DNA of 64,000 bases from Escherichia phage SelmaRatti, in the sequence record MZ501103. The stretch is one strand, 5' to 3'. Position 1 is the first letter of the stretch; the number at the start of each line of letters is the position of its first letter. The translations under genes were made by a program, and so were the position numbers. This document shows positions 4,677-62,341 of this stretch, in pieces. The notes beneath the pieces are model-generated. The model did not search any database and had not been told where the DNA came from. It saw only the letters and a list, made by a program, of their open reading frames with translations.

Positions 4677-6053
4677 ATGACTATTGATATTAATAAGCTG
4701 AAAGAAGAACTTGGTCTGGGTGATCTGGCTAAATCTCTGGAAGGTCTGACCGCTGCTCAGAAAGCTCAGGAAGCTGAACGTATGCGTAAAGAGCAGGAAG
4801 AAAAAGAACTGGCTCGTATGAATGATCTGGTTTCTAAAGCAGTTGGCGAAGATCGTCAGAAGCTAGAAGAAGCTCTGGAACTGGTTAAATCCCTGGATGA
4901 AAAATCTAAGAAGAGCGCAGAACTATTTGCACAGACTGTAGAAAAGCAGCAGGAAACTATCGTTGGTCTTCAGGACGAAATCAAGTCTCTGCTGGCAGCT
5001 CGTGAAGGTCGTTCATTCGTAGGGGATAGCGTAGCTAAAGCACTGTACGGTACTCAGGAAGCTTTTGAAGATGAAGTTGAAAAACTAGTCCTCCTGTCTT
5101 ATATGATGGAGAAAGACGTATTCGAAACTGAACATGGTAAGGCTCACGTTAAAGCTGTTAACGGTTCTTCTTCCGTTTCCATGTCTAGCGAAGCATACGA
5201 AACTATCTTCTCTACCCGTATTATCCGTGACCTGCAGAAGGAACTGGTAGTTGGTGCACTGTTCGATGAACTGCCAATGTCCAGCAAAATCCTTACTATG
5301 CTCGTTGAACCAGAAGCTGGTCGTGCTACTTGGGTAGATGCTTCCAAATTCGGTACTGACGAAACTGTTGGTGACGAAGTTAAAGGTCAACTGACTGAAA
5401 TCAGCTTCAAAACTTACAAGCTGGCTGCTAAATCCTTCATCACTGATGAAACTGAGGAAGATGCAATCTTCTCCCTGCTGCCTCTGCTGCGTAAGCGTCT
5501 GATCGAAGCACACGCTGTTTCTATCGAAGAAGCTTTCATGTCCGGTAATGGTACTGGTCAGCCTAAGGGTCTGCTGAAACTGGCTGCTGATGATGGTGCT
5601 AAGGTTATTACCGAAGCTAAAGCTGACGGTTCTGTTCTGGTAACTGCTAAGACTATCTCCAAGCTGCGTCGTAAACTGGGCCGTCACGGTCTGAAACTGA
5701 GCAAACTGGTACTGATCGTATCTATGGATGCTTACTACGATCTGCTGGAAGATGAAGAATGGCAGGATGTTGCCCAGGTTGGTAACGATGCTGTTAAACT
5801 GCAGGGTCAGGTTGGTCGTATTTACGGTCTGCCGGTTGTAGTTTCTGAGTACTTCCCAGCTAAAGCTGCTTCCGCTGAATTCGCAGTTATTGTTTATAAA
5901 GATAACTTCGTAATGCCGCGTCAGCGCGCCGTTACTGTTGAACGTGAGCGCCAAGCTGGTAAACAGCGTGATGCATACTACGTTACTCAGCGTGTTAACC
6001 TGCAACGTTACTTTAATAATGGCGTTGTATCTGGTGCTTACGCTGCATCTTAA
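4677..6053 (+). CDS. major capsid protein with N-terminal scaffolding (delta) domain (pb8-like)
   Basis: 458 aa; N-terminal ~100 aa coiled-coil rich in E/K/L followed by HK97-fold-like capsid region; strong codon bias; no separate scaffold gene nearby. Confidence 0.9.
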   Translation: MTIDINKLKEELGLGDLAKSLEGLTAAQKAQEAERMRKEQEEKELARMNDLVSKAVGEDRQKLEEALELVKSLDEKSKKSAELFAQTVEKQQETIVGLQDEIKSLLAAREGRSFVGDSVAKALYGTQEAFEDEVEKLVLLSYMMEKDVFETEHGKAHVKAVNGSSSVSMSSEAYETIFSTRIIRDLQKELVVGALFDELPMSSKILTMLVEPEAGRATWVDASKFGTDETVGDEVKGQLTEISFKTYKLAAKSFITDETEEDAIFSLLPLLRKRLIEAHAVSIEEAFMSGNGTGQPKGLLKLAADDGAKVITEAKADGSVLVTAKTISKLRRKLGRHGLKLSKLVLIVSMDAYYDLLEDEEWQDVAQVGNDAVKLQGQVGRIYGLPVVVSEYFPAKAASAEFAVIVYKDNFVMPRQRAVTVERERQAGKQRDAYYVTQRVNLQRYFNNGVVSGAYAAS

Positions 6054-6063
6054 TATTGACTAC

Positions 6064-6118
6064 TATACCCTCTCAAAAGAGAGGGTATACCATATTACAG
6101 TTCATTCATATGGTATAC
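6064..6118 (+). terminator. two overlapping alternative hairpins downstream of major capsid gene
   Basis: 11-bp perfect stem 6064-6074/6079-6089 and 11-bp perfect stem 6085-6095/6108-6118 share 6085-6089; no U-tract. Confidence 0.4.
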
Positions 6119-6136
6119 TTGTATGGGGGTTACTAA

Positions 6137-6706
6137 ATGGCAGGAAAAGCGATACCTTATGAAATAAGGGAAAAGCAAATTCTAGAAATTTGCGAAAAAG
6201 AAGGGTATGTATATAAAGGGGTGGTTGGTAACTTTAAGAATTCAGAATCCAAAATACTGATAGAATGCACTAAGGATGGTAATTGTTGGACTCCACGCAT
6301 ACGTAATTTTGTCAATACTGGTTCACGATGTCCAAAATGTTGTCAAACACGTTTTTTGAAGGCAAAAGAAAATAAAGTAGTATCTATAGAAGATACTACT
6401 GCTATTTTTTATATTCAAAGATTGACTAACAATTATCACTCAGTTCTAAAATATGGAATAACTTCCCGAAATATTGATGTTCGGATTAGAGAACAATCAC
6501 GAGTATCAGCCTATACTCACGAACTACTCCTATCAGTGCAACTACCTTCTAGACAGGAGGCATTTATGTTAGAAGCCTTAGTAAAACAGTCTATTCCTTC
6601 TGGGTTTCTTACTCCTGCTCTTCTCCCTGATGGGTATACAGAAACCTGTCTTGAAAAATACCTGCCAGAGATAAAACATATAGTTTATAATTATATGTTT
6701 TCCTAG
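6137..6706 (+). CDS. zinc-ribbon + T5orf172 (GIY-YIG-like) domain protein, putative homing endonuclease
   Basis: One C-x-x-G-x-C-W...C-P-K-C zinc-ribbon unit followed by a T5orf172-like block (IFYIQRL...KYGITSRN...R..E); paralogous to 42636-43301 and 52729-53592. Confidence 0.6.
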   Translation: MAGKAIPYEIREKQILEICEKEGYVYKGVVGNFKNSESKILIECTKDGNCWTPRIRNFVNTGSRCPKCCQTRFLKAKENKVVSIEDTTAIFYIQRLTNNYHSVLKYGITSRNIDVRIREQSRVSAYTHELLLSVQLPSRQEAFMLEALVKQSIPSGFLTPALLPDGYTETCLEKYLPEIKHIVYNYMFS

Positions 6707-6724
6707 TAACGGCTCTTTAGCCGA

Positions 6725-6750
6725 AAGAGAGCTTCGGCTCTCTTTTTTAT
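6725..6750 (+). terminator. rho-independent terminator
   Basis: stem aagagagc/gctctctt with TTCG loop followed by TTTTTT. Confidence 0.7.
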
Positions 6751-6761
6751 TGGAAAAATAA

Positions 6762-7274
6762 ATGCAAATCATCACTATTGAAGACTACAGACTATATGCT
6801 AATGCAAAGCGACCTGATATGGAAACTCAGGTTGAGATGATGATTAAAGCTGCCAATACGCTGATTACAAGCCTTCTAGGTATGGATGATGCAGATGCGG
6901 TAGATCAATTAATCACTACAAAACCTAGCCGTAGGAAATATTTCCTGAGTTCTCCCTCAGCCACATCTATTACAAAGATGACTATTAACGAGAATGAAAT
7001 AGGCCAGGAACAGTTTAAATTGTACCCTAATGGTGTTATTCTTCTTAAATTTAATCCTCCTGAGGGATATATGGATGTAGAATATACCCAAGGTGGTTTC
7101 AACCCAATGCCTGAAGATCTTAAGCTGGCAGCATGCCTGTTAGTAGATCACTGGCATAAGCAGGATTATCGTCAAGCCAAGACTATTGGTGGGGAGACAA
7201 TTACGTTTAATAGTACTAAGTCTGGTATTCCAGAGCATATTCGTACAATCGTCGAAGTATATAGGAGAGTATAA
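6762..7274 (+). CDS. hypothetical virion protein (head completion/connector candidate)
   Basis: 170-aa ORF in head-tail joining region; assignment by synteny only. Confidence 0.45.
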   Translation: MQIITIEDYRLYANAKRPDMETQVEMMIKAANTLITSLLGMDDADAVDQLITTKPSRRKYFLSSPSATSITKMTINENEIGQEQFKLYPNGVILLKFNPPEGYMDVEYTQGGFNPMPEDLKLAACLLVDHWHKQDYRQAKTIGGETITFNSTKSGIPEHIRTIVEVYRRV

Positions 7275-8041
7275 TGGCTCTTTCTGATATAGCTACACAA
7301 ATTATTAAAGAGCAGCTAGATTCTGCTGGACGTTCTGAGAATAATAAGAATACTGTTGTATATACAGTTGAGACTGGTTTGAAAGATCTTACAAGAGACG
7401 GTACAGTTGCACAGGTATCTTTTAAGTTCTCTAAACCAGTATCTCAAGATTTACTTAATGTTAGGACTGCTTCTATCCTAAAAGCTGTATCTTCTAGCTT
7501 AGATCTAACAGGAGACTTAGGTGCTTTAGAAAGCCTTATTCAATCAACCGCAGGCAAGAAATCTTCTGTAGGTAAAAAACGTTCTACTGGTAGAGTAGAG
7601 GTAAACTTTGGGGATCCTAGAGACGTGGAAGATGGATATTCTGGTGCAGTAACAGGTGTTTCAGGACGTTTTGTATCTAATAGCAATATGAAGGTTATTC
7701 TGGAGTTGGTTGCTAAAGAATACTTAATAAAAGATATGAAAAAAGCAGGGGCTCCACTTAAATTTAGAACAGGTCGTTTTGCAAATTCTTTAAAAGTTAA
7801 AGATGTTATGCTTAGAGATGCTGGAACTAGCAAAGGTGCTCCTGAATTAAATGTTACATATAATTATATGGTACGTCCATATTCTGTGTTCAATCCGGCA
7901 GTATCTACATACAGAAGATTATCTCTACGACCTTATCCTGGCGCTAGAAACCCACAAAAACTTATTGGTGAGGCTATAGCAAAAGCTGCAAGAGACCTTA
8001 TTCACTCCAGGTACAAAATTAAGGTTAATCAAGGAACCTAA
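7274..8041 (+). CDS. hypothetical virion protein (tail completion candidate)
   Basis: 255-aa ORF, start overlaps upstream stop; synteny only. Confidence 0.45.
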   Translation: MALSDIATQIIKEQLDSAGRSENNKNTVVYTVETGLKDLTRDGTVAQVSFKFSKPVSQDLLNVRTASILKAVSSSLDLTGDLGALESLIQSTAGKKSSVGKKRSTGRVEVNFGDPRDVEDGYSGAVTGVSGRFVSNSNMKVILELVAKEYLIKDMKKAGAPLKFRTGRFANSLKVKDVMLRDAGTSKGAPELNVTYNYMVRPYSVFNPAVSTYRRLSLRPYPGARNPQKLIGEAIAKAARDLIHSRYKIKVNQGT

Positions 8042-8044
8042 TAA

Positions 8045-8533
8045 ATGGATCACAGAACAAGTATAGCACAAGCTCTGGTTGACCGAATAGCCAAACAAAT
8101 GGATGGCTCTCAACCAGATGAATATTTTAATAACTTGTATGGAAACGTCTCACGTCAAACTTATAAGTTTGAGGAGATACGAGAGTTTCCTTATGTAGCA
8201 GTCCATATTGGAACTGAAACTGGGCAGTATCTTCCTTCTGGTCAGCAGTGGATGTTTTTAGAACTTCCGATACTAGTATATGATAAAGAGAAGGATGGAG
8301 ATATTCAAACTTCCCTGGAAAAACTCGTAGCGGATATAAAAACCGTTATTGACACAGGTGGAAATTTAGAATATACTGTTAGTAAACCTAATGGATCGAC
8401 CTTCCTATGTGAGGCGACTGATATGATCATTACATCAGTTAGTACAGATGAGGGTCTACTGGCCCCATATGGTTTAGCAGAAATAAATGTAACAGTGAGG
8501 TATCAGCCTCCGCGTAGGTCACTTCGCAGATAA
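8045..8533 (+). CDS. hypothetical virion protein (tail terminator candidate)
   Basis: 162-aa ORF immediately upstream of tail tube gene; synteny only. Confidence 0.45.
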   Translation: MDHRTSIAQALVDRIAKQMDGSQPDEYFNNLYGNVSRQTYKFEEIREFPYVAVHIGTETGQYLPSGQQWMFLELPILVYDKEKDGDIQTSLEKLVADIKTVIDTGGNLEYTVSKPNGSTFLCEATDMIITSVSTDEGLLAPYGLAEINVTVRYQPPRRSLRR

Positions 8534-11723: not shown

Positions 11724-11752
11724 GCTCTGGGTGATATGCCCAGAGCTTTTTT
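11724..11752 (+). terminator. rho-independent terminator immediately upstream of tape measure gene
   Basis: 8-bp stem gctctggg/cccagagc followed by TTTTTT. Confidence 0.7.
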
Positions 11753-11769
11753 ATTGGGAAAAATAAAAC

Positions 11770-42004: not shown

Positions 42005-42277
42005 TTATTCTGCCTCATAGTACGTGGGTTGTCTAGTGGATCCGTGCCATGTAAAATTTTTGCAGAGATGCAAATACGTGGTTTTTACTAGCCTACCTGA
42101 CAATGGAGAGTATATTTCAGCTATTAATACTTCTTTTTCGTAATGAAGTGAAATCAGCTTATACCCACTTCTAGTTTTAGTATACTTTTCTCCATTAATC
42201 TTCTCCTCCCACATAAGTATAAGAGGCTGTCCGATATATGGGAAAGGTTTAAGTGTACTTATATTTATCTTTTTCAC
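42005..42277 (-). CDS. hypothetical protein
   Basis: 90-aa ORF, GTG start with GAGGG RBS, downstream of promoter. Confidence 0.45.
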   Translation of the reverse strand: MKKINISTLKPFPYIGQPLILMWEEKINGEKYTKTRSGYKLISLHYEKEVLIAEIYSPLSGRLVKTTYLHLCKNFTWHGSTRQPTYYEAE

Positions 42278-42307
42278 TTTGCAACCCTCTCATTAATTTA
42301 TATAAAT

Positions 42308-42336
42308 ATTATATAACAAAACTGAGTTGAAAGCAA
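42308..42336 (-). promoter_or_regulatory. T5-type early promoter (TTGCTT-17-TATAAT)
   Basis: -10 42308-42313, -35 42331-42336; conserved ATTTATATAAATTAATGAGAGGG leader. Confidence 0.65.
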
Positions 42337-42342
42337 ATACAT

Positions 42343-42654
42343 TTATTCTTTTTCCGCCAGGCGTTTAGCTTCTTTTTCTACTTCTAATAAAACCTCACTA
42401 TTAGATAATATTTTAGTAAATGCCTTAAATAAATGAGATGTTGTTTCTAGAGTGTATGGCATACTGAATCCACTTTTTGTTGGAAACCATTCACCTTCTA
42501 TATCTTGGAGCCAGTACCTAATTCCTAAGTATAGATTCCCCCTAAACTCAGATACAGTTAGCCTAACCTGTTGGCCATCTTCTCTCTCCCAGATAACTAT
42601 GGACTGATCATCTACATGTCCAACATAATCCTGATTTACATTATCTCCTGACAT
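42343..42654 (-). CDS. hypothetical protein
   Basis: 103-aa ORF. Confidence 0.45.
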   Translation of the reverse strand: MSGDNVNQDYVGHVDDQSIVIWEREDGQQVRLTVSEFRGNLYLGIRYWLQDIEGEWFPTKSGFSMPYTLETTSHLFKAFTKILSNSEVLLEVEKEAKRLAEKE

Positions 42655-43301
42655 TTTATTGCTCCCTGACTTAGGAGATATTCCTCTGCCTCCTCTGGTT
42701 GAATACTGAAAAACTCAGTAGAACCGTCAAATATTGACTCTGTAAATATCTGCATACTAGAAAAGAATTGATGGGCTTTATTTTCTAGGGTATATGCAGA
42801 GCCTTCATAAGAGTATACCCCATGTATACTCAGATCCACCAAATTAGAATCTTTTTTGATCTCTTGAAGTCTTCTATCTGGGTTTTTAGATGTTCCTATT
42901 TTTGTTCCTAGCTGCGGGCTATAAAATAGATACAAATAGCTTGTAGCCGCACAGATAGGGCAAGATCTTCTAGCATTTTTAATCTTATCCACGCTGCTAG
43001 CCCATCTATGCCCTTCTACACACTCGAACTCTGCTTGACTACGGGAATTAATATAGGGAGATACAAGTTTTATACCCCTACTAGCTAGCTGTTGGTTTAT
43101 TTGCTCTACAGTAAGCTTAGCTTTATTACTACAATGTGGGCAACCACTACCCTTTCTTATATTATTTAGGTAAGCTTTCCATTGGTGGCCATTTAAGCAT
43201 TTAAACATGGCTGGTGTTCTTATGTTAACCCATTCACTTACTATACTAAAGCCTCGTGACTCTAACTCTTTATTTATTTGTTTTGCTGTTAACTTTTTCA
43301 C
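42636..43301 (-). CDS. zinc-ribbon (x2) + T5orf172 (GIY-YIG-like) domain protein, putative homing endonuclease
   Basis: Two C..GH.W......I..G.GCP.C repeats then LYLFYSPQLGTKIGTSKNPDRRLQEI block. Confidence 0.6.
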   Translation of the reverse strand: MKKLTAKQINKELESRGFSIVSEWVNIRTPAMFKCLNGHQWKAYLNNIRKGSGCPHCSNKAKLTVEQINQQLASRGIKLVSPYINSRSQAEFECVEGHRWASSVDKIKNARRSCPICAATSYLYLFYSPQLGTKIGTSKNPDRRLQEIKKDSNLVDLSIHGVYSYEGSAYTLENKAHQFFSSMQIFTESIFDGSTEFFSIQPEEAEEYLLSQGAIKCQEIM

Positions 43302-43348
43302 TATACTTTATATACAACAAAGGAGAGCCGAAGCTCTCCTTTTCTTTA

Positions 43349-43639
43349 TTATTTTTTACCTACTGGCGTAGCTCTATCAAGTTCACTAGACAATGAAGTG
43401 ATACGTTTTACCTTATTTACCGGGATGAATCGGAAGCTATCATTAGTACGGCTAAATACTAGAATCTCGTCGTCTTTTGGTTGGCGAATACGCTCCTGGG
43501 CGAATCGTTTACTGAGATACTTATCAGAAAAGTCCATAGTACCTTGAAGATACGTAGTACCTTTTTGACGTAATTTCTCATAATGAAGGTAGAACTCGTT
43601 ATGAGCTTCACATGCGGAGATGATTTCTTGTTTATTCAT
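43349..43639 (-). CDS. hypothetical protein
   Basis: 96-aa ORF. Confidence 0.4.
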   Translation of the reverse strand: MNKQEIISACEAHNEFYLHYEKLRQKGTTYLQGTMDFSDKYLSKRFAQERIRQPKDDEILVFSRTNDSFRFIPVNKVKRITSLSSELDRATPVGKK

Positions 43640-43654
43640 GCAAAAATCCCCTTA

Positions 43655-44065
43655 TTACTTAGTGATAGCTCGGATTGCTTCTGCCAGATGAGCAGCCGCT
43701 TTACCAGTCAGTTTGTCGATAATTGCATCATCCAGAAAATCTGGTGCTAGGCCAGCATCAGAGAATGCTGAACGAAGATCGGCATGAGCTTGGGCTTTAG
43801 AAGTGCGAGAACCACCAGAAGCTTTTTCTCCAGTAGATGCGCTAGATTTAGAAGCAGAGCCAGCAGCTTTCTTGATGTACAAACCTGCTTTAGTCAGCTT
43901 CATACGAAAACCGTTCGGAGTTACACCATTTTCCTGGGCAATTTCGCTAACAATTTCCATGCTAACACCCGGACGTTCATCCTCTGGGAATTGCTCCATA
44001 CGAGCAACGTATTCGGAAGACATTTTTTCGAACAGTTCATCAGTCCACTGAGTTGGAGTAGTCAT
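43655..44065 (-). CDS. hypothetical protein with HTH-like repeat
   Basis: 136 aa; AAGGAA RBS; Ala/Ser-rich linker, similar in style to 39291-40058 product. Confidence 0.45.
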   Translation of the reverse strand: MTTPTQWTDELFEKMSSEYVARMEQFPEDERPGVSMEIVSEIAQENGVTPNGFRMKLTKAGLYIKKAAGSASKSSASTGEKASGGSRTSKAQAHADLRSAFSDAGLAPDFLDDAIIDKLTGKAAAHLAEAIRAITK

Positions 44066-45167: not shown

Positions 45168-45410
45168 TTATGATTCCTTGAGCAAAGAAGCAAGTTCAGC
45201 ATAGACTTTATCTAATTCAAAGCCGATGCGAAGAGACACGTTTGTTTTCCGTTGTTTAAGTAACCACTCGGATATGTTAGGGATGCCAGCTAGTCTAGCA
45301 GGAACCACCCTACATAGCTTTTCCGAAGTGTCGTAAACAGGAAATTTATGTTCTTTTACTGGAAACTTCCTTGTTTCCCATTTTTTATTCTTCACTGTCA
45401 TTTCTAGCAC
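45168..45410 (-). CDS. hypothetical protein
   Basis: 80-aa ORF overlapping end of upstream gene. Confidence 0.4.
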   Translation of the reverse strand: MLEMTVKNKKWETRKFPVKEHKFPVYDTSEKLCRVVPARLAGIPNISEWLLKQRKTNVSLRIGFELDKVYAELASLLKES

Positions 45411-49625: not shown

Positions 49626-50075
49626 TTACACCTTAAATTGTTGTAAGGATTTACACATTTCAATATCTGGGCTAAATTCTAGCATATAGCTAACAGCTTT
49701 TAAATCTTGAAGATTTATCCCAGTCCTACCGTTGACTATAACCGTTGGATACTGATACATCATAGCACCAGCACGCTCAATAAGGTCATCAACGTTAGTA
49801 GTCAAATTTACTACTTGACCAGGATATTTCTTATACCATTCCCCAATACGCAAGTGTGCAAGGTTAGGTTCAACAGTTTCTAGCTCTTCACGTCGCTTGT
49901 TGTAAAACATATGGGTTTTATGATAAAAGTTACCACGAAAGGCATGAATATTACATACCTCTTCTAAGTCATAATCATCCCACAATGCTTTACCACTAGC
50001 AGTATCAGTACGGAAGGCTCGTACACCACTTTCAACACTCAAACCTACACCACTGATAATAATTAATCTACGCAT
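49626..50075 (-). CDS. Sir2-like (sirtuin N-terminal half) NAD-binding protein, truncated
   Basis: ISGVGLSVESGVRAFR resembles sirtuin GAGIS..SGI..FR; LW, FY..R.E motifs; NLTTNVDDLIERAG resembles ITQNID.LH.RAG; no zinc ribbon or catalytic HG. Confidence 0.5.
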   Translation of the reverse strand: MRRLIIISGVGLSVESGVRAFRTDTASGKALWDDYDLEEVCNIHAFRGNFYHKTHMFYNKRREELETVEPNLAHLRIGEWYKKYPGQVVNLTTNVDDLIERAGAMMYQYPTVIVNGRTGINLQDLKAVSYMLEFSPDIEMCKSLQQFKV

Positions 50076-50289
50076 TTTTCACCTGTTCTCTAAAGTTTTG
50101 CCCAATACTGTCTAACAGCTCAGCTAATTCTTTATTGCCTTTCTCCATTAAGGTATTAGCAATAACTTCTAGCATAGTAGCGCAGGATTCAACACCATCC
50201 TTATAGCCAGTTTCCCAGTGCTGCATTAATGCGTTTTCCAAAGCGGTGTTTAAATCACTGCCTGGTAGCATCGGCTTCGAGAATGCCAT
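50068..50289 (-). CDS. hypothetical protein
   Basis: 73-aa ORF. Confidence 0.4.
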   Translation of the reverse strand: MAFSKPMLPGSDLNTALENALMQHWETGYKDGVESCATMLEVIANTLMEKGNKELAELLDSIGQNFREQVKNA

Positions 50290-50461
50290 AAAGTTTCTCC
50301 TCTAGTTCCATAACACGATTTTCATAAGAGGCACGCAACTTTTCAATTGCCAGTGCACGCACTGTAACCTCATTAGAATTAATAGCTAATTGGGCCAGAT
50401 CTTCTGTTTCCATACGTCCGTTGTAAATTAAGCGATATTTAAGATGTTTTACGTTTTTCAT
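50255..50461 (-). CDS. hypothetical protein
   Basis: 68-aa ORF. Confidence 0.4.
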   Translation of the reverse strand: MKNVKHLKYRLIYNGRMETEDLAQLAINSNEVTVRALAIEKLRASYENRVMELEEKLYGILEADATRQ

Positions 50462-50817
50462 ACTTTTAGCTCCGCCCCAATATCCTCATAGAAGTAATCG
50501 TAGTAAACTTGCTTAATATGATGCTTAATAACAGAGGAGAAATCCTCTGTGCCATTAGAGGTAACATTAAATACTTGTAAGTGGTTCCAATACACAAATT
50601 CTAGAGTCTCTTTTAAGTCTTCAGGTTCTTCGTATATAGGATTATAGACAGTAATATCTAATTCTTGCTCTACAAAGTCGCCTAGTAATGTAGGATACCC
50701 AATACCTTCTAGTAATGAGTAATCACCCGTAGCAGCAAAAATAGCTTCCTGAATAGTATCTACCCCTAAGTGATAATGTCCTAACTTAGATACAACAATA
50801 AATGGTTTTAGTTCCAT
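50458..50817 (-). CDS. hypothetical protein
   Basis: ATG at 50817 with GAGGAGGG RBS directly downstream of promoter; ORF-track N-terminal 12 aa are promoter/leader. Confidence 0.5.
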   Translation of the reverse strand: MELKPFIVVSKLGHYHLGVDTIQEAIFAATGDYSLLEGIGYPTLLGDFVEQELDITVYNPIYEEPEDLKETLEFVYWNHLQVFNVTSNGTEDFSSVIKHHIKQVYYDYFYEDIGAELKV

Positions 50818-50844
50818 ATACCCTCCTCTCAAATTTATAAATCT

Positions 50845-50873
50845 ATTATACATATATTTTTAGCTGAAAGCAA
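50845..50873 (-). promoter_or_regulatory. T5-type early promoter (TTGCTT-17-TATAAT)
   Basis: reverse complement TTGCTT...TATAATAGATTTATAAATTTGAGAGGAGGG then ATG. Confidence 0.7.
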
Positions 50874-50907
50874 ATAAAATAAAAGCCAGGTCGACTAGCA
50901 ACCTGGC
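50872..50907 (-). terminator. rho-independent terminator after nrdD
   Basis: 7-bp stem gccaggt/acctggc then TTTTATTTTATTT on - strand. Confidence 0.6.
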
Positions 50908-50915
50908 TGATTAGC

Positions 50916-52742
50916 TTATTTAAGATTTAAGTGTTTTACTCTACCAAGCACTTCTTTTTGTTTCCCAGAATTGAAAGGCCTACTGCCCGGGGATCCCAGG
51001 TACCCGCAAACCCTACGTGTAACCTCTATTTCTTCAGATCCACAACCCGGACATACAAACCCACGTTCAGAAGCAACAGATTCACCCATATATCCGCAGT
51101 TGAAACACTCATCAATTGGTATATTAACACCAATATAATGGCTACATTCTAGCCCCTTATCCACCACATACTCAAGAGCTTTGTGGAACTTTTTCATTTG
51201 AGGTAGTTCCACAAATGATATATTACCACCATTAGCTATTTTGGTAAAATGAGCTTCGTACTCAAATTTAGTATCTGGGGCTACTTTCTCTCTTACGTCC
51301 AAATGGTGACTATTAGTAAGATAGCCTTTATCTGTTAACCAAGAATACTCTGGGAACCTACGTTCTAGTAATTTATTAAAACGATTACATAGAGACTCAC
51401 TAGGAGTAGCATACAAGCTAAACCCAAGATTAGTCTCATTAGCTTTAACTTCGCAACGATTTTTTAGGTGAGTGAGAACTTCCTCTGTAAATTCAATACA
51501 ATCCCTATGGGTTTGTGGTAGACCAAACATTATTTGGCACATCTCATAGACCCCAATGTATCCAAGAGATACAGAAGATCTACCCTCAAAAATAGGCCAT
51601 ACATACTCTTCCCCATCTAAACGCACACCAAAACCCCCGTGCATATAAAGAATAGGGGCTTGTTTAGCCTTCACTTTCTTAAGTCTATTTAAGAAAAAAT
51701 CATGAGCTTCAAAAGCCTCATCCACATATTTGTCCAGAATATCCCAGAAATCTTCAAAAACCCCATCTGCCTCAGCAGCAACCATAGGTAGATTAATAGA
51801 CACTACACCTAAATTATTGCGCCCTGCAATTTCTCCGGAGGGGATAGCAGATAAAAAGCTACGACAACCCATAGGTGCTTTAAAATCACCAGTAACAGCT
51901 ACAACTTTCTCGTAACTTAAATAGTCCGGGTACATACGGGTAGCAGAACACTCAAGTGCTAGCTGTTTTATATCGTAGTTAGGGTCGCCTGGATTTTTAT
52001 TTAACCCTTCTTTAACTGAGAATACTAGTTTAGGGAAGATAGGGGTTGACTCAGCAGCACCTAAACCTTTAATACGGTTTTGGAGGATGGCTTTCTGAAT
52101 CATCCTTTCCTCCCACCCCTGTCCTAGCCCAAAGCCAAGCGTAACAAAAGGAGTCTGTCCATTAGAGTTAAATAATGAATTAGTTTCATACTCTAGGGCT
52201 TGGAATGCGTCATAACACTCTTTTTCAGTAAGTTCAGTAGCATATACAGCAGCTTTCCTTTCATCCTTGAGCCAACGTAGACCACGACCCAGATGTTTAT
52301 TGTAAGACTTTCTGACATACGGGGCTAGAACCTCATCGATACGATCAATAGAGGTGCCACCATACTGAGCACCAGATACTTGGGCAATAATCTGAGCAGT
52401 GATTGCACATGCAGTAGTTATGGATTTAGGAGTTTCAATATTTGCATTACCAATTTTAGTACCATTCTTCAGCATGCTACCAAGGTCTACTAAGCAACAG
52501 TTAGTGTACCCCTGTGCTCTGTAATCCATATCATGAATGTGTATCTTACCTAGATTATGGGCGTCTAACAGGTGTTTAGGTAACTCTTGCGATACTAAAT
52601 ACTTGTTAACTTCCCCAGCTAATAAGTCTCTTTGAGTATGGAACATCTCACTAGGTTTATTAGCATTATTATGCTGTAAATCCTTATCCGCAGTTAGAGT
52701 GAGCAGACCTTTGCAATTCTCAATTAATTCATTCTCTGTCAT
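50916..52742 (-). CDS. nrdD: anaerobic ribonucleoside-triphosphate reductase
   Basis: 608 aa; C-terminal glycyl-radical motif RVCGYLG; zinc site CFNCGY...CPGCGS. Confidence 0.9.
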   Translation of the reverse strand: MTENELIENCKGLLTLTADKDLQHNNANKPSEMFHTQRDLLAGEVNKYLVSQELPKHLLDAHNLGKIHIHDMDYRAQGYTNCCLVDLGSMLKNGTKIGNANIETPKSITTACAITAQIIAQVSGAQYGGTSIDRIDEVLAPYVRKSYNKHLGRGLRWLKDERKAAVYATELTEKECYDAFQALEYETNSLFNSNGQTPFVTLGFGLGQGWEERMIQKAILQNRIKGLGAAESTPIFPKLVFSVKEGLNKNPGDPNYDIKQLALECSATRMYPDYLSYEKVVAVTGDFKAPMGCRSFLSAIPSGEIAGRNNLGVVSINLPMVAAEADGVFEDFWDILDKYVDEAFEAHDFFLNRLKKVKAKQAPILYMHGGFGVRLDGEEYVWPIFEGRSSVSLGYIGVYEMCQIMFGLPQTHRDCIEFTEEVLTHLKNRCEVKANETNLGFSLYATPSESLCNRFNKLLERRFPEYSWLTDKGYLTNSHHLDVREKVAPDTKFEYEAHFTKIANGGNISFVELPQMKKFHKALEYVVDKGLECSHYIGVNIPIDECFNCGYMGESVASERGFVCPGCGSEEIEVTRRVCGYLGSPGSRPFNSGKQKEVLGRVKHLNLK

Positions 52743-53592
52743 TGATTATTTCCTCGATAAACTTTATAGCTACTTTTGGTTCAATATTGAAGAATTCCGT
52801 AGCACCGTCAAAATCTTTGTACTGGCAATTCTGCTCTTTAAAGTAGTTATGGGCTAATTTTTCTATTAGAACTGCACCACTATATTCTCCAATTTCAAAT
52901 ACTTTAATTATTTCCAAATCAGTAAGGTGGCTACTAGACCTAATATGTAGAAGTCTACGCTCTGGATTGTTAGATCTACCTATTTTAACTCCGTGTGATG
53001 GGCTATGCATAACATATATCTTAGTACTTTCTAAATCTCTATAACTACAGTAAGGACAACCATTCCCTCTTAATACAGATCCTGGAGTAGCTTCCCACCT
53101 ATGCCCTGCACCACAAAGAAAGGCGGTCTTAGTATTCGCATTACTATACTCACCCACTATTCTGATATTTCTGGCAGCAAGACGATCATTTATAGTATTA
53201 ACACTAAGTTTCTGTTTATTAGCAGCACAAGATGGGCAGCCACTACCTCTATTAATTATACTATTAAGTGTAGTAGCCCACTCATGACCACAAACACACC
53301 TAAATTTAGTATTTATATCAGCACTATTTTTATAGCCGTTCAACAATGTAATACCTCTGTCCTGTAATATAGTATTAATTTTATCAATATCTAGTTTACG
53401 GCTACTAATAGAGCAAGTATGACACTTGGTCTTTCCATTCCTAATGGCGTCAAATTTAGCTGTCCATTGATGACCGTATTCGCACTGATACGTATGCCTA
53501 TACCTAGAATTTTGATATGGCTTATCCACCATAGTAAAACCACGCTCGGCTAGGCATTTATCTACTTCTTCTTGAGTTAATTTTTTCGGCAT
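52729..53592 (-). CDS. zinc-ribbon (x3) + T5orf172 (GIY-YIG-like) domain protein, putative homing endonuclease
   Basis: Three tandem ~50-aa C..GH.W...G..CP.C repeats then KIYVMHSPSHGVKIGRSNNPERRL block; ATG at 53592 with GGAG RBS. Confidence 0.6.
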   Translation of the reverse strand: MPKKLTQEEVDKCLAERGFTMVDKPYQNSRYRHTYQCEYGHQWTAKFDAIRNGKTKCHTCSISSRKLDIDKINTILQDRGITLLNGYKNSADINTKFRCVCGHEWATTLNSIINRGSGCPSCAANKQKLSVNTINDRLAARNIRIVGEYSNANTKTAFLCGAGHRWEATPGSVLRGNGCPYCSYRDLESTKIYVMHSPSHGVKIGRSNNPERRLLHIRSSSHLTDLEIIKVFEIGEYSGAVLIEKLAHNYFKEQNCQYKDFDGATEFFNIEPKVAIKFIEEIINDRE

Positions 53593-53620
53593 TCCACTTC
53601 TCCACAGAATTTTTACACCT

Positions 53621-53649
53621 ATTATACTAAACATTATCCACTATGTCAA
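53621..53649 (-). promoter_or_regulatory. sigma70 consensus promoter (TTGACA-17-TATAAT) for the triple zinc-ribbon endonuclease gene
   Basis: -10 53621-53626, -35 53644-53649 on - strand; divergent from phoH promoter. Confidence 0.6.
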
Positions 53650-53786
53650 TTAAAATTTTCTTTCGCCATCTAATACTGTAATATTTCGCGTATAAATAAA
53701 TGATTATCTAGTATCATATTTCTACCTTTATAAGCAAGTAAATTTTTTATTTAAAAGCAATATCATAGGTTTATTTAAAATTATAC

Positions 53787-53815
53787 TTGCTTTTTGCTGT
53801 AAACCTTGTTATAAT
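53787..53815 (+). promoter_or_regulatory. sigma70-type promoter (TTGCTT-17-TATAAT) upstream of phoH
   Basis: -35 53787-53792, -10 53810-53815. Confidence 0.6.
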
Positions 53816-53891
53816 ATATTTGTAAGTTGATAAACAAGATCTCTTTGTTGATCCTCTGTTAGAAGCGAAGTACACTATAGGAGTGTTATTT

Positions 53892-54644
53892 ATGGGAAAA
53901 GCACGTCAAAAAAGAGAGAACCGCAATGGTTCAAGAAAGCGTGGCAACAAATATGAGAATAACGTAATTCAGGCTGATTTTTCTAATGATTACGCTAACC
54001 CAGTTGCTAAATCCCTAGTAGGTAAAAACCGAGAGCAAAAATCATATATCAATATGATCAAGAACAACACAGTGACTGTGGGTATTGGTGAGCCAGGTAC
54101 TGGTAAAACCTTTATCCCGTCTGTTCTTGCAGCTCAGGAACTCGTAGACATTCACTCAGATATTGAGCAAGTGATTCTAGTCCGTCCTAATGAACCTCTA
54201 GGTAAGTCTCTTGGTATGCTTCCTGGTGATCTAGCAGAAAAGCTAGAGCCTTGGTTAGAGCCAATAGCTGATGGTATGAAATGGGCCATCGGTGATCATG
54301 CCTATAATGGGTATGTCGAACGTCAGAAAATTAAATTTTTGGCTGTAGAACATGCTCGTGGCAGAACTTTCAACAACTCCTATGTAATTGTCGATGAAGC
54401 TCAGAATATTTCCGTTGAGGCAATGATTTGTCTCCTAACTCGTGTAGGACAAGACTGCCGTTTAATTATCTGTGGAGATATAGCTCAGAAAGACATTAAA
54501 GGTGACTCAGGTCTAGCACTCCTTATGGAAGTCTATGAAAAATACGAAAATGCCCCATTCTCAATGATCGAATTGATTGATAACGTTCGTTCTGTTGAGT
54601 CTAAAGCATTCTATGATATTTTTAAAGACATGGGGAAGGTGTAA
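53892..54644 (+). CDS. phoH: PhoH-like ATPase
   Basis: Walker A GEPGTGKTF, Walker B IVDEAQN; ATG at 53892 after TAGGAG. Confidence 0.85.
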   Translation: MGKARQKRENRNGSRKRGNKYENNVIQADFSNDYANPVAKSLVGKNREQKSYINMIKNNTVTVGIGEPGTGKTFIPSVLAAQELVDIHSDIEQVILVRPNEPLGKSLGMLPGDLAEKLEPWLEPIADGMKWAIGDHAYNGYVERQKIKFLAVEHARGRTFNNSYVIVDEAQNISVEAMICLLTRVGQDCRLIICGDIAQKDIKGDSGLALLMEVYEKYENAPFSMIELIDNVRSVESKAFYDIFKDMGKV

Positions 54645-54843: not shown

Positions 54844-54920
54844 GTGGCCAAAAACTAGACTGACAACACAGAAGGCCTGGGTATGAAAATGCTCGGGCCT
54901 TTTCTATCAGAAAATTTTAT

Positions 54921-54949
54921 TTGCCAAATGACTGAGAATAAAGTAAACT
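54921..54949 (+). promoter_or_regulatory. possible promoter (TTGCCA-17-TAAACT) upstream of nrdA
   Basis: weaker match to sigma70 consensus. Confidence 0.35.
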
Positions 54950-54987
54950 ATTTCCTAAATCCTGATAACTATAAAAAGGAAAGCCAA

Positions 54988-57900
54988 ATGAGCCATCGCA
55001 TTGAAAAAGTAATTAAACGTGACGGTACTGTAGAAGACTTTGCTCCTGAAAAACTCAATGGTTGGGCAGAGTATGGTTGCAAAACAGTTGATGTAAGTTG
55101 GTCAGCCATTACTATGGCTGCTCAAAAAACCCTACCTAAAGGGGTTGTAGATTCCGACACTCTTATGGACGCATTAATTAAAGCTGCTGAAAGTCTTATC
55201 AAAGATAACCCAGCATACGATGTGCCAGCAAAGGAATTACGTCTTGCGCAAATGCGTAAGCGCCTTTATGACTCTTTCGAACCACCTTCTCTACGCTTCT
55301 TCCATGACCACATGGTTAGCGTAGGTACATGGGAAGACATGAGTGCATGGATTACCGATGAGCAATTTGAAGCTCTGAATCAGGTTATCGACCATGATCG
55401 TGACCGTCTTTTTACTAGTGGTGGGCTGAAGCAGTTCTTTGATAAGTATTCACGTCGTAACATAGCCACTGGTGAAATTTACGAAACCCCTCAATTCGCC
55501 TATATGGGTATGGCAATGGCGATGTTATCTCAACCTAACTGGACAATTCTAGATGCAATCGATCTCTACAATGCAATGTCGCTCCACAAGATCAACGTTC
55601 CTACGCCGCCATTGGTTGGCTTGCGCTCTAGTGACCGTGGATTTGCTAGTTGCTGCCTCGTGGATTCCACTGACACATTGGATTCAATCGACACAGCAGA
55701 GCACATCGTCTTCAAAATGGTCGCAGCCAGAGCGGGAATCGGGTATCATCTTGAAAGCAGATCAATTGCTGATCCGGTGCGAAATGGGGCATTCCCGCAT
55801 TCCGGAAAACTGCCATATTATCGACACATTGACCGCTCAGTAAAGGCCAATACTCAGCAAACTCGTGGTGGTTCTGCTACAGTGTCTTATCCATACTTCG
55901 ACCCTGAAATCATTCAATTGATGCAGGTTAAGCAACAACGTGCTACAGATGAGAATAAAATCGATAAGATGGATTATTCTCTGAGCTTTAACAATCTTTT
56001 GTTAAAACGTTATCTTAAAAACGAAGATATTACGCTAATGTCATACTTCTATGCTCCAGAAGTTCATGAAGCGTTTTATAGTGATGACGAGGCTAAATTT
56101 GAAGAAATCTACGTGGCAGCGGAGAAACGTGTGGCATCTCTTACAAAAATCGACCACGAAGGAAAAACAGTTCCAGCAGCTCCTAAAGTCTCTGCAAAAG
56201 AAATCCTAGATACTTGGCTACGTATCCGAATGGAAACAGGACGTATGTACGCTCACCACATCGGGGAATCTAATCGTCACGGTAACTTTCTTGATCCAAT
56301 CCGTATGACTAACCTTTGTGTAGCTCCAGAAACAAAAATTTTAACCAAAAATGGTAACATAGAGATTATTGATTTAGTTGGTAAAGAAGTAGAGATTTGG
56401 AACGGGCAAGAATGGTCAACAGTTATCCCTGCTAAAACTGGGGAAGCTCAGGAGTTGATGAAAATCACATTCTCTGATGGATCTACTATTGAATCTACTC
56501 TTTATCATAAGTTCTACCACCAGCCCAAATATGTAAGAGAGGATCGTAGTACCTCCTTCAAACAGGGTCTAGAAGAGGTACGAGCAGTAGACTTGCAAGT
56601 AGGTATGAAAATGCCTAAATTTAGTAATCCTATTGTAGATCATGGAAATATGGTACTAAAATCTCCTTATACTAACGGTTTCTTCACTGGAGATGGAACT
56701 TATGGAAGACATGGAGAACCTAAGCTGTACTTCTATGAAAAAGGAGGCAAACTACCATTAGTGGATAAAATTGACGCAAAGATTCAGGGAAGTGGATTAC
56801 TGGACAGCACAGGTAGACTGAGTTATATTGTTAAGTCTGATTTAATGCCGAAGTATTTTGTACCTGGCCCAGAATACACTATTGATAGCCGTATCAAATG
56901 GTTAGAGGGATATTTAGATGCAGATGGCTGCATACAGAAAAATGGCACAACCCCTAGTATTGTGGTTGCTTCGGCAGAGCCTGATTTTCTAAGTAAAGTG
57001 AAGGATTTGTTACTAGAATTGGGGATTACTAGCAAGATTATTTTAGGACGCCAAGAAGGTGACTACGAGTTACCAGATGGTACTGGTAGTAGTAGTAAAC
57101 TATACCACTGCAAGGAGACTAGTAGGCTTATTGTGGGGAGTAGTGGCTTCTGGAAACTTAAAGATTTAGGACTCTCTTTGGATAAAGAGAAACTCTTAAA
57201 CCTAACACGCCCCAATAGAGACGCAACCCGTTTTGTAACTGTAACTAACGTTGAGTTTACTGGTCGTATTAGTGATACCTATTGCTTTACAGAACCTAAA
57301 TTAAACTTGGGTGTATTTAATGGCATTTTAGCTGGTAACTGTGTAGAGATTACTCAGCCTACACGCCCGTTCCACCACATCACAGAGCTGTATAAGACAA
57401 AAGAGCAGCTTGATCAAATGAAGCCGGAGGATATTGGTGAAGTATCTCTGTGTAACTTAGGTGGTGTTGTACTTGGACGCATGGAATCTCTGGCTGAGTG
57501 GGAAAAAACTTGCTACATCCTTCTGAAATTCGTTGATACAATTATTGAAATTCAGGATTATCCGTTCCCAACTATGGAATATACGGCTAAGAAACGTCGT
57601 AATGTTGGTATTGGCCTGATGAACGCAGCAGGTGCAATGGCAGCAGAAGGTCTGGCTTATGAAGGTATTGAAGCCCGTAACTGGATTCACCGTGAGGCTG
57701 AAAAACTGTCTTACTTCCTGCATAAAGCCTCTGTACGCCTAGCTAAAGAACAGGGCGCATGTGAGTGGTTTGATCGTACTAAACCATCTAAAGGAATTCT
57801 GGTAATCGACACTTACAAGAAAACTGTTGATGAACTGGTATCCGTAGGTCTAGAAATGGATTGGGAATCTCTGCGTGCAGATATTCTGAAATACGGTATG

Positions 57901-58344
57901 CGTAACTCTGTTCTGACTGCGCAGATGCCTGGAGAAAGCTCTTCTGTACTATTGGGTGTTACCAACTCAATTGAGCCACCTCGTAAGATTGTATCTATCA
58001 AGGGTAGTGCAGTGAATAAAGTAATTGCAATTGCTCCAGGTGCAACCGATTGGGATACTCTCATGAGCTATAAACTGGCCTATGATATTGATCGCACTGA
58101 GTGGATCAAGTGGAACGCCGTTTACCAAAAATTCTTGAGTCAGTCATCAAGTTTCCAGATGTATTATGATTACTCTAAATTCGAGAATGAAATCATCCCT
58201 GGCCCAGTAGTAGTTCGTGACTTTATGACTGCGGTTAAGTATGGTATAAAAACCTGGTATTATGCTAACTTTAACACTGCGAATGGTGGAGGAGCTGGTG
58301 AAGAGGCGGCAACAGGTTGTGCATCAGGCGGTTGTCAGTTATAA
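54988..58344 (+). CDS. nrdA: ribonucleoside-diphosphate reductase alpha subunit, interrupted by an intein
   Basis: N-terminal ATP-cone (VIKRDGTVEDF); active-site NxCxE split as TNL | intein | CVEI; C-terminal Cys pair; start set at ATG 54988 with AAGGAAAG RBS. Confidence 0.9.
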   Translation: MSHRIEKVIKRDGTVEDFAPEKLNGWAEYGCKTVDVSWSAITMAAQKTLPKGVVDSDTLMDALIKAAESLIKDNPAYDVPAKELRLAQMRKRLYDSFEPPSLRFFHDHMVSVGTWEDMSAWITDEQFEALNQVIDHDRDRLFTSGGLKQFFDKYSRRNIATGEIYETPQFAYMGMAMAMLSQPNWTILDAIDLYNAMSLHKINVPTPPLVGLRSSDRGFASCCLVDSTDTLDSIDTAEHIVFKMVAARAGIGYHLESRSIADPVRNGAFPHSGKLPYYRHIDRSVKANTQQTRGGSATVSYPYFDPEIIQLMQVKQQRATDENKIDKMDYSLSFNNLLLKRYLKNEDITLMSYFYAPEVHEAFYSDDEAKFEEIYVAAEKRVASLTKIDHEGKTVPAAPKVSAKEILDTWLRIRMETGRMYAHHIGESNRHGNFLDPIRMTNLCVAPETKILTKNGNIEIIDLVGKEVEIWNGQEWSTVIPAKTGEAQELMKITFSDGSTIESTLYHKFYHQPKYVREDRSTSFKQGLEEVRAVDLQVGMKMPKFSNPIVDHGNMVLKSPYTNGFFTGDGTYGRHGEPKLYFYEKGGKLPLVDKIDAKIQGSGLLDSTGRLSYIVKSDLMPKYFVPGPEYTIDSRIKWLEGYLDADGCIQKNGTTPSIVVASAEPDFLSKVKDLLLELGITSKIILGRQEGDYELPDGTGSSSKLYHCKETSRLIVGSSGFWKLKDLGLSLDKEKLLNLTRPNRDATRFVTVTNVEFTGRISDTYCFTEPKLNLGVFNGILAGNCVEITQPTRPFHHITELYKTKEQLDQMKPEDIGEVSLCNLGGVVLGRMESLAEWEKTCYILLKFVDTIIEIQDYPFPTMEYTAKKRRNVGIGLMNAAGAMAAEGLAYEGIEARNWIHREAEKLSYFLHKASVRLAKEQGACEWFDRTKPSKGILVIDTYKKTVDELVSVGLEMDWESLRADILKYGMRNSVLTAQMPGESSSVLLGVTNSIEPPRKIVSIKGSAVNKVIAIAPGATDWDTLMSYKLAYDIDRTEWIKWNAVYQKFLSQSSSFQMYYDYSKFENEIIPGPVVVRDFMTAVKYGIKTWYYANFNTANGGGAGEEAATGCASGGCQL
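56317..57339 (+). mobile_element. intein with LAGLIDADG homing endonuclease domain inside NrdA (341 aa)
   Basis: Starts CVAPETKIL, LAGLIDADG-like NGFFTGDGTYG and WLEGYLDADGCIQ, block F-like DTYCFTEP, ends NGILAGN followed by Cys. Confidence 0.8.
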
Positions 58345-58419: not shown

Positions 58420-58450
58420 ATTCCTGAAATAGTGAGAAAGAGGAAAATCA

Positions 58451-60126: not shown

Positions 60127-60959
60127 TGAAACAGTATATTGATTTAATTAATAAAGTTTTATCTGAGGGAACTCACGTGTCTGACCGGACAGGTGTAGGT
60201 ACTATCTCTTCCCTAAATAATATTGTCTCTTTTGACCTTACTAAAGGGTTTCCAGCAGTAACAACAAAAGCACTAGCGTGGAAATCCGTGGTAGGGGAGT
60301 TGTTGTGGTTCCTCTCAGGATCCACTAACTTGTATGATCTAGAAGAGTATACTCATGGGACTAGAGGAGAGAAGCGTACTATCTGGCATCCTAATTATGA
60401 AAAACAAGGGGTCGAAAAAGGCTACACTGAAGGTTATCTGGGATATATTTATGGGAAAACCTGGAGAGACTTCTTCGGCACAGACCAGATTATGAAACTA
60501 ATCGAGGATATCAAATCCGATACTTTTCATAATAGAAAAATGGTAGTCTCAGCATGGAATCCTGCAAAACTTGACGACGTTGTGCTTTCCCCCTGCCACG
60601 TAATGTTCTCCGTAAACCAAAGAGATGGACACCTACACTTAACATGGTACCAGGTTAGTTGTGATGTATTTCTGGGATTACCATTTAATATAGCTAGCTA
60701 TGCCTTACTCTGTCATATTTTAGCTGCACTCACAGGAAAGAAACCTGGGTCAGTAACGGGACATCTTGTGGACACTCATATTTACTTAAATCACCTAGAC
60801 CAAGTAAAGGAGCAAGTAACTAGAGAACCCCTGGAGCTACCTAGACTAGTGCTACCAAACTTCTCTTCCTTAGAAGATCTTCTGGCCCTAACACCCAAAG
60901 ACTTTATCCTGGAAGAATATAAACATCACCCTAAATTAACTGGTAAAATGGCAGCATGA
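60126..60959 (+). CDS. thyA: thymidylate synthase
   Basis: 277 aa; GELLWFL and catalytic SPCH region. Confidence 0.9.
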   Translation: MKQYIDLINKVLSEGTHVSDRTGVGTISSLNNIVSFDLTKGFPAVTTKALAWKSVVGELLWFLSGSTNLYDLEEYTHGTRGEKRTIWHPNYEKQGVEKGYTEGYLGYIYGKTWRDFFGTDQIMKLIEDIKSDTFHNRKMVVSAWNPAKLDDVVLSPCHVMFSVNQRDGHLHLTWYQVSCDVFLGLPFNIASYALLCHILAALTGKKPGSVTGHLVDTHIYLNHLDQVKEQVTREPLELPRLVLPNFSSLEDLLALTPKDFILEEYKHHPKLTGKMAA

Positions 60960-61831: not shown

Positions 61832-62341
61832 ATGATTAATCCAAAAGTAGCTAATGCCTATATTAAGTACAAAGAAGGGACAGCTTCAAAAGAGCAGCTA
61901 AAGTTGCTGCTAGATGTAATAGCCCAAACGTTCCATTATATGGAACTACATGCACTAAATAGTGATGAGGACTGCCAGCTAGTCATTCGTTATGATGGAG
62001 TAGGTCAGGAAGAGGAATGGCCGGACTATCTAGCAGAGGAGATAGATAGTATAGAGTGTGATGAATCTTTAACTGCTGAGGAAACAGCACAGAAGGTTCA
62101 AAGAGTACTAGATGAATATTATAAAACCAAACCTAAGAGGGGTGCAACCTGTTCCATAGAAACTCTCACACCTTGTGAAGATGATATTCAAGAGGTAACT
62201 GAGTGGTTCTCAGAGTTTAAAGAATATACCCACTACTTTAGTGAGCCAGCTTTTCTCTCACTATTAGCACTACCTAGAATGTATAAACCAGCAGATAGTG
62301 AACCATCACATTGGCCTGAAGATACCTACGAAGGGGAATAA
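61832..62341 (+). CDS. hypothetical acidic protein
   Basis: 169-aa ORF downstream of promoter. Confidence 0.5.
   Translation: MINPKVANAYIKYKEGTASKEQLKLLLDVIAQTFHYMELHALNSDEDCQLVIRYDGVGQEEEWPDYLAEEIDSIECDESLTAEETAQKVQRVLDEYYKTKPKRGATCSIETLTPCEDDIQEVTEWFSEFKEYTHYFSEPAFLSLLALPRMYKPADSEPSHWPEDTYEGE

Follow-up and report, generated by a model that had tools for sequence, protein, structure and literature searches.

Three probable homing endonuclease genes with one, two and three zinc-finger units at separate sites in the genome of Escherichia phage SelmaRatti

Introduction

The gene that precedes nrdD in Escherichia phage SelmaRatti raises the question of why a T5-like phage should hold, at three dispersed places, genes whose products share a C-terminal block preceded by one, two or three tandem units. 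The stretch analysed here, referred to as the window, comprises 64,000 nucleotides of this phage (sequence record MZ501103), and a first-pass annotation had read the three genes as free-standing homing endonucleases. In the following, p1, p2 and p3 denote the genes and proteins with one, two and three units, respectively, p3 being the one at nrdD. That proposal is supported by what was computed here: the domains recognised by profiles, the predicted fold, the residues of the nuclease core, the scattered distribution, the points of insertion, islands of high identity and degraded copies in relatives. We regard p1, p2 and p3 as likely free-standing homing endonuclease genes, belonging to the T5orf172 branch within the GIY-YIG superfamily.

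Proteins of this kind have already been described. Netter et al. (2021) defined the CapR zinc finger, found that DNA binding depends on its four cysteines, and connected the finger with putative T5orf172 homing endonucleases of phage ICP1 (PMC8096241). Barth et al. (2021) demonstrated DNA cleavage by the T5orf172 protein Odn, an activity that the E180A mutation abolishes (PMC8263062). According to Barth, Dunham and Seed (2023), homing endonuclease genes of the T5orf172 type abound in T5-like phages and are enriched there, and 87% of them hold at least one finger of the CapR/DUF723/DUF4379 type, often several, arranged as "beads on a string"; the number of repeats changes through recombination, and the genes cluster by essential genes and mark the boundaries of genetic exchange (PMC10448857). 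The BASEL papers also noted that putative homing endonucleases are present in some of these phages and absent from others, and they annotate p1 as one. Publications and annotations already cover the family, the variation in its number of repeats and how common it is in T5-like phages; what is added here is local detail: alleles with two as opposed to three units and remnants at the nrdD site, a 3′ end of p3 that doubles as the translation-initiation region of nrdD, and the lengths of the tracts surrounding the genes.

Zinc-finger units and nuclease domains

All three open reading frames (ORFs) are present where the first-pass annotation had placed them, two on the minus and one on the plus strand (Table 1). 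Its unit counts agree with the stretches matched by the Pfam model DUF4379 ("probable treble clef zinc finger"), three in p3 (52.8 bits), two in p2 (40.1 bits) and one in p1, the last with 15.2 bits and under the cut-off of 24.5. The CapR model (PF21817) is passed by all three proteins, with 46.4, 31.6 and 36.4 bits against a cut-off of 24.2. The length of the units, put at about 50 residues, had been underestimated, as the actual period is about 60-63 residues. Each of the six units holds four candidate ligands in its sequence, arranged as Cys-(x3)-His or Cys-(x5)-Cys followed by C-x2-C, and this second knuckle is invariant among the homologues aligned.

Identity from unit to unit is 26-42%, and 19-27% in comparisons with the p1 unit. 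No nucleotide-level tandem repeats were found within p2 or p3. Since the units have diverged at the protein level and are devoid of nucleotide repetition, the duplications are old, and recent slippage or duplication is ruled out as the source of the difference in copy number. A full-length product is encoded in 79 of 80 relatives from IMG/VR, with two (19), three (52), four (6) or six units (2). The finger array also occurs without a nuclease in bacterial "zinc-ribbon" proteins, while elsewhere it is fused to other nuclease domains (PF04480, PF18741, PF01541) and, in phages, to HNH.

The C-terminal T5orf172 block, which had been ascribed to all three proteins, stands above the Pfam cut-off in p2 and p3. 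PF10544 matches p3 with 41.6 bits and p2 with 29.3 bits (cut-off 20), MUG113 likewise passes in both, and both literally contain the motif KIG.S.NP.RRL, in place of which p1 has KYGITSRNIDVRI. In p1 the block is a distant one, recognised through the membership of all three proteins in phrog_681 ("endonuclease") and through profile comparison. A profile made of p1 and its four nearest relatives matches the profile of the p3 family with 98% probability (hhalign, E 1.9e-13) over the last finger and the nuclease core, and Tyr, K-Y-G, Arg, Glu and DG-x-TE fall in register. A word-indexed homologue search returned only three relatives of p1, so that its placement needed this profile-profile comparison. 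Among the 21 homologues aligned, Tyr, K-I/Y-G, Arg, Glu and DG-x-TE are invariant, and p1 retains all of them. The core glutamate (E266 in p3, E196 in p2, E169 in p1) can be equated with E75 of I-TevI and E180 of Odn, in the case of Odn by the position of the DG-x-TE motif. The modelled fold of the p3 C-terminal domain matches the GIY-YIG nucleases SLX1, I-TevI and UvrC. No NCBIfam model matches p1, p2 or p3.

Between p2 and p3, phmmer gives E about 1e-44, which marks them as clear paralogues; p1 is a distant relative of both (E 3e-6 and 3e-4), and a phmmer search among the ORFs of the window found no fourth member of the family.

Sporadic occupancy of the insertion sites

At 80-99% identity, the sequences flanking the three loci have matches in about 440-455 records of T5-like phages (Demerecviridae, Markadamsvirinae). 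Of about 440 such records, 26 contain p3 in full; p2 occurs in 14 of about 443 and a p1-type gene in 31 of about 454, the last forming three allele groups at 94-99.6%, 75-77% and 65% identity. Each gene is carried by about 3-7% of roughly 450 T5-like genomes, at fixed sites between conserved genes, and relative to T5 and bastian the insertions are clean and intergenic. None of the three genes is present in T5, whose synteny with the window places an empty site at all three loci. The two observations that the first-pass annotation had named as fatal to its proposal were not made: GIY-YIG/T5orf172 profiles are matched, and presence and absence at the loci are polymorphic among T5-like genomes.

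T5 instead carries T5.154 and T5.141, both annotated "endonuclease", and the HNH genes hegH, hegI and hegJ. The corresponding places in the window, the junctions at about 1943-2059 (T5.154), 11749-11755 (T5.141), 37736-37739 (hegJ), 45398-45405 (hegI) and 58421-58426 (hegH), are all empty; the occupancy by endonuclease genes is completely reshuffled between the two phages. Beyond these sites, relatives of p3 turn up by tblastn in 474 phage records; T5-like genomes have one to four copies each, and the matches extend to Ackermannviridae-like phages (about 150-160 kb) and to Vibrio, Listeria and other phages. Close or identical copies are labelled as (putative homing) endonucleases in GenBank. 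The exact p1 and p2 proteins are both recorded from SelmaRatti, a phage of the BASEL collection, p1 under the annotation "putative homing endonuclease".

Identity islands, decayed copies and alternative explanations

Each of the three genes lies within a segment of raised identity to a relative (Table 1). The tract around p1 reaches 1.0 kb to its left and 1.8 kb to its right, and it is shared with TrudiRoth, a phage of another genus (Epseptimavirus) that is 77-96% identical to the window over most of the 20 kb compared. Such islands are consistent with the pattern predicted by homing accompanied by co-conversion of the flanks; as sequence patterns, they are supportive rather than decisive.

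Decayed copies are found as well. The p3 copies of HildyBeyeler and DT57C have lost internal sequence, and what is left at the nrdD site includes a 3′ remnant with the nrdD ribosome-binding site. In HildyBeyeler, the first five codons of p3 are joined out of frame to its last 186 nt (52729-52914 of the window), and the deletion joint (positions 1905-1915 of that phage) leaves an 18-codon ORF and an intact nrdD ribosome-binding site, while the DT57C remnant, about 130 nt long, comes from a different allele (74% identical). In addition, p1 of HildyBeyeler is frameshifted at the GIY strand, and truncated variants of p2 exist in relatives.

These remnants could also be expected if p1, p2 and p3 were ancestral T5-like genes in the course of loss, vertically inherited, repeatedly deleted and immobile now, and the identity of p3 to its carriers (91-98%), which resembles that of the flanks, agrees with such a history. 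Decay, however, is no argument against mobility, because it is a stage in the life cycle of homing endonuclease genes. Vertical descent also does not sit well with the nearly identical tract centred on p1 in a phage of another genus, with the island shared with Epseptimavirus S124 against a more divergent background, or with the presence, at the same sites, of divergent alleles (65-77% nucleotide identity) and of alleles with another number of units. We consider loss from an ancestral set an unlikely explanation.

Less likely still, the proteins could be weapons that cut competing phages, satellites or host DNA without copying their own genes, in the way ICP1 Odn cuts PLE. Odn is a T5orf172 nuclease in exactly that role (PMC8263062), the catalytic residues of the three proteins are intact, and PADLOC returned weak, domain-level matches of the p2 and p3 nuclease domains to the candidate defence family PDC-S57. 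Their DNA-binding part, on the other hand, is a generic CapR/DUF4379 array typical of the putative homing family (PMC10448857) and not a captured replication-initiator domain, and no result implicates a satellite of T5-like phages. Homing fits better with three paralogues at three sites, each with an identity island and with decayed copies in relatives. Finally, a domesticated regulator like PLE CapR, with fingers that control the capsid gene, nrdD and the PC4-like gene and no nuclease role, is very improbable: CapR does repress a capsid operon (PMC8096241), p1 directly follows the capsid gene, and both p3 and p2 show translational coupling to the genes downstream of them, but CapR is without a nuclease domain, whereas p1, p2 and p3 each retain a complete one of the T5orf172 type, conserved Tyr, Arg and Glu included, and the genes are not needed for the regulation of core genes, because most T5-like phages do without them.

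Several observations weigh against the homing endonuclease reading itself. None of the Pfam nuclease models matched p1. The islands alone do not prove endonuclease-driven conversion, because T5-like genomes are generally mosaic, and the identity profile against SP01 holds further windows of 98-99% elsewhere. As the divergence of p3 tracks that of its flanks in most carriers, vertical descent with loss could explain much of its distribution. No target or immunity site was identified either. A cluster of four substitutions at the 3′ end of the capsid gene, upstream of p1 (TTTAATAAT as opposed to TTCGAAAAC), was considered as a possible self-immunity change; in the IMG/VR sample, a small one, it shows no clean association with the presence of p1. 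TTTAATAAT occurs in two contigs with p1, two with an empty site and one (NBEco002) that has no match to p1 and an unresolved junction, and TTCGAAAAC in five contigs that lack p1 as well as in JLBYU43, where the allele is a divergent one. We also found no published cleavage or homing experiment for any T5orf172 protein of a T5-like phage, these three included.

A possible mode of spread

If p1, p2 and p3 are homing endonucleases, they may work as beads on a string, in which one to three independently folded treble-clef modules of the CapR/DUF4379 type, each made of a helix and beta-hairpins holding one Zn, would read a specific DNA sequence. A flexible linker would tether the C-terminal GIY-YIG-like domain, which could then cut nearby. 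During a mixed infection with a related phage devoid of the gene, the enzyme would cut the genome of that phage near the empty site, and recombinational repair templated by the carrier genome would copy the gene, together with 1-2 kb of flanks, into the recipient. Once no empty targets are left, the copies would be expected to decay through frameshifts and deletions. DNA cleavage, target sites, homing and a link between the number of fingers and the length of the target are what we infer for the three proteins. The idea that the repeat array sets the target length, also put forward in the first-pass annotation, is the same open hypothesis that was raised for the T5orf172 family by Barth et al. 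(2023; PMC10448857).

Expression of the genes appears to piggy-back on the neighbouring genes of the phage: the nrdD early operon begins with p3, a terminator precedes p2, and p1 follows the capsid gene, from which two hairpins separate it.

A bolder proposal, to which we give a low probability, would take the finger array for a modular DNA-reading code in which each unit of about 60 residues contacts a fixed block of base pairs. Jointly with it, and just as improbably, the alleles with two and three units at the nrdD site would be re-programmed specificities, exchanged by recombination within the conserved 3′ end, which also serves nrdD as its ribosome-binding site. If such a code were real, the family could be deciphered into a compact programmable scaffold for DNA binding and nuclease activity.

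For the window, the significance of these results is mainly one of annotation, as they account for three of the insertions that set the phage apart from T5, and the neighbourhoods of the capsid gene, nrdD and the ligase gene emerge as recombination hot spots unsuitable for phylogeny. The predicted products are small natural modular nucleases, for which pairs of carrier and empty T5-like phages exist (for example, BASEL TrudiRoth and HildyBeyeler in comparison with T5). Such pairs represent a convenient system for the questions of T5orf172 homing and of finger number and target length, both already posed in the literature.

The three loci

At the nrdD site, the start of p3 at 53592 (MPKK...) is preceded by the ribosome-binding site GGAGAA, and the same 864-nt gene is annotated in phage Shivani. 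A longer ORF of 301 residues beginning with the ATG at 53634 was rejected, because that ATG sits inside the promoter, between its -35 and -10 hexamers. The promoter is kept in relatives without p3, according to the alignment. At the other end, the ribosome-binding site of nrdD (GAGGA) lies within the p3 codons ...IEEI..., and the last codons of p3 (IEEIINDRE) include the nrdD start codon. NBEco002, VAH1 and NR01 hold alleles with two units at this site, in which the middle is divergent and the 3′ end is common; compared with them in the alignment, unit 1 of p3 is the extra one.

The surroundings of p3 differ markedly in their identity to T5. While the genes on either side are 93-96% identical, nrdD (50266-52505) is just 67-70% identical to its T5 counterpart, and the part from 51270 to 51753 is unmatched. 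As the 5′ half of T5 nrdD stays at 67-70% and the phoH side reaches 95.7%, a mosaic boundary is placed at p3, and nrdD is, judging by these identities, a swapped module bounded by p3.

The p2 gene sits between homologues of T5.114 and T5.115, where it replaces about 130 bp; this region was mapped to T5 by BLAST segments, the MAFFT alignment being unreliable there. The last 19 nt of p2 are shared with the start of the PC4-like gene, and no promoter-like site with more than 9/12 matches was found for p2. Beside p2, an ORF of 90 residues (42005-42277, minus strand) is inserted between ligA and the PC4-like gene; it is absent from T5 and has no Pfam match.

The segment that carries p1 begins shortly after the capsid stop codon and ends a little ahead of a conserved terminator (6719-6739) that precedes the head-completion gene, and in bastian the empty site is a clean junction. 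Two stable hairpins stand 5′ of p1. At the same place JLBYU43, which has an allele of about 65% identity, also forms two hairpins, though from another sequence (z -6.9), which suggests that the pair is a conserved RNA-level control of endonuclease expression.

Table 1. Coordinates of the three genes, their domains and the surrounding features in the window (ligands, domains and tracts as predicted from alignments and profiles)
Feature	Position	Strand	Details
p3	52729..53592	-	287-aa putative endonuclease gene; three zinc-finger units and T5orf172 domain; first cistron upstream of nrdD
p3 unit 1	53401..53592	-	residues 1-64; candidate ligands C37, H41, C57, C60 (alignments)
p3 unit 2	53212..53400	-	residues 65-127; candidate ligands C99/C101, H103, C119, C122 (alignments)
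p3 unit 3	53035..53211	-	residues 128-186; candidate ligands C160, H164, C179, C182 (alignments)
p3 T5orf172 (GIY-YIG-like) domain	52732..53034	-	conserved Y193, K203-I-G205, R213, E244, H248, E266
p3 3′ end/nrdD start overlap	52729..52742	-	14 nt
Sigma-70 consensus promoter	53621..53649	-	TTGACA, 17 nt, TATAAT; 12/12 matches; predicted to drive p3 and nrdD
High-identity island with nrdD and p3	50500..54500 (about)	.	93-98% to Epseptimavirus S124; background 77-88%
p2	42636..43301	-	221-aa putative endonuclease gene, GTG start; two zinc-finger units and T5orf172 domain
p2 zinc-finger units	43119-43301 and 42939-43118	-	
p2 T5orf172 domain	42639-42938	-	Y124, K134-I-G136, R144, E173, E196
Terminator-like hairpin of the gene upstream of p2	43319..43342	-	immediately 5′ of p2; terminator annotated at the equivalent place in T5
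Co-conversion-like tract around p2	42175..43693	.	4 differences from SP01 in 1.5 kb; about 3-4% divergence on both sides
p1	6137..6706	+	189-aa putative endonuclease gene; one zinc-finger unit and divergent T5orf172-like domain
p1 zinc-finger unit	6155-6352	+	candidate ligands C44, C50, C65, C68
p1 T5orf172-like domain	6392-6703	+	Y92, K105-Y-G107, R116, E146, E169
Inserted segment carrying p1	6056..6710	+	absent from T5 and bastian
Two stable hairpins	6064..6118	+	between capsid stop codon and p1 ribosome-binding site; z -4.35
Co-conversion-like tract around p1	5115..8511	.	8 differences from TrudiRoth in 3.4 kb (99.8%); flanks 85-95%

Other differences from T5

The comparison with T5 also revealed insertions outside the three loci. 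The DNA polymerase ORF (33142-36786, minus strand) contains an in-frame insertion of about 360 residues (34768-35848), absent from T5 polymerase, which is an intein with a LAGLIDADG_2 endonuclease domain and boundaries typical of inteins, an N-terminal Cys and a C-terminal ...VVHN followed by Cys. A second intein, also absent from T5, is an in-frame insertion of about 340 residues (56322-57339) in the nrdA ORF (54883-58344, plus strand), reading CVAPETKIL ... GILAGN|C and containing LEGYLDADG; the nrdA of Shivani is annotated "contains intein splice site". Directly behind the thymidylate synthase gene, and overlapping its stop codon, lies a canonical free-standing GIY-YIG homing endonuclease gene (60956-61729, plus strand) that is absent from T5 and has Pfam matches to GIY-YIG, NUMOD3 and an I-TevI-type zinc finger and DNA-binding domain.

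Further on, an ORF of 169 residues (61832-62341, plus strand) is absent from T5 and has no Pfam match. The segment 21608-25132, without a nucleotide match to T5, is the lateral tail fibre region, a known hypervariable host-range locus. At 49766-49773, about 1.2 kb of T5 (56757-57946; within T5.102-T5.105, the Sir2-like genes and small ORFs) has no counterpart.

Comparison with known systems

Among known homing endonucleases, the Hef-like enzymes share the N-terminal finger array, as phrog_559 matches residues 15-203 of the 301-residue form of p3 and tblastn with p3 matches genes annotated "Hef-like homing endonuclease" in phages Jersey and AR9; their catalytic domain, however, is HNH and not T5orf172. 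In I-TevI and the Seg proteins of T4 the order of the parts is reversed, with an N-terminal nuclease as opposed to the C-terminal one of p1-p3. The DNA-binding modules of those enzymes are of the NUMOD/helix-turn-helix type, whereas repeated treble-clef fingers are present here, and the first nuclease motif here is a K-I/Y-G variant.

The nuclease of ICP1 Odn (gp88), whose cleavage is proven biochemically, resembles p1-p3 in its C-terminal T5orf172 domain with conserved Arg and Glu, but Odn has a captured RepA_N domain that targets a satellite origin in place of a zinc-finger array, and it serves anti-satellite defence, not homing (PMC8263062). PLE CapR, after which PF21817 is named, has a homologous zinc-finger DNA-binding domain; unlike p1-p3 it is a repressor whose nuclease domain has been lost (PMC8096241). 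The ligand patterns also differ, being CxxC...CxC in CapR, C-x3-H...C-x2-C in p2 and p3, and C-x5-C...C-x2-C in p1.

In T5 itself, T5.154 is one of two places that match p3 in tblastn, at about 33% identity over residues 61-279. Like the genes of the window, T5.154 and T5.141 are free-standing between conserved structural genes; unlike them, they occupy the terminase/T5.153 and tape-measure/chaperone sites. Closest of all is the family described from ICP1 (gp165, gp174 and others), T5-like phages and Plateaulakeviruses, which has the same architecture, a variable N-terminal finger array followed by a C-terminal T5orf172 domain, and the same behaviour, with intergenic positions beside essential genes, boundaries of genetic exchange and lineage-specific expansion (PMC10448857). 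From this family p1, p2 and p3 show no essential difference.

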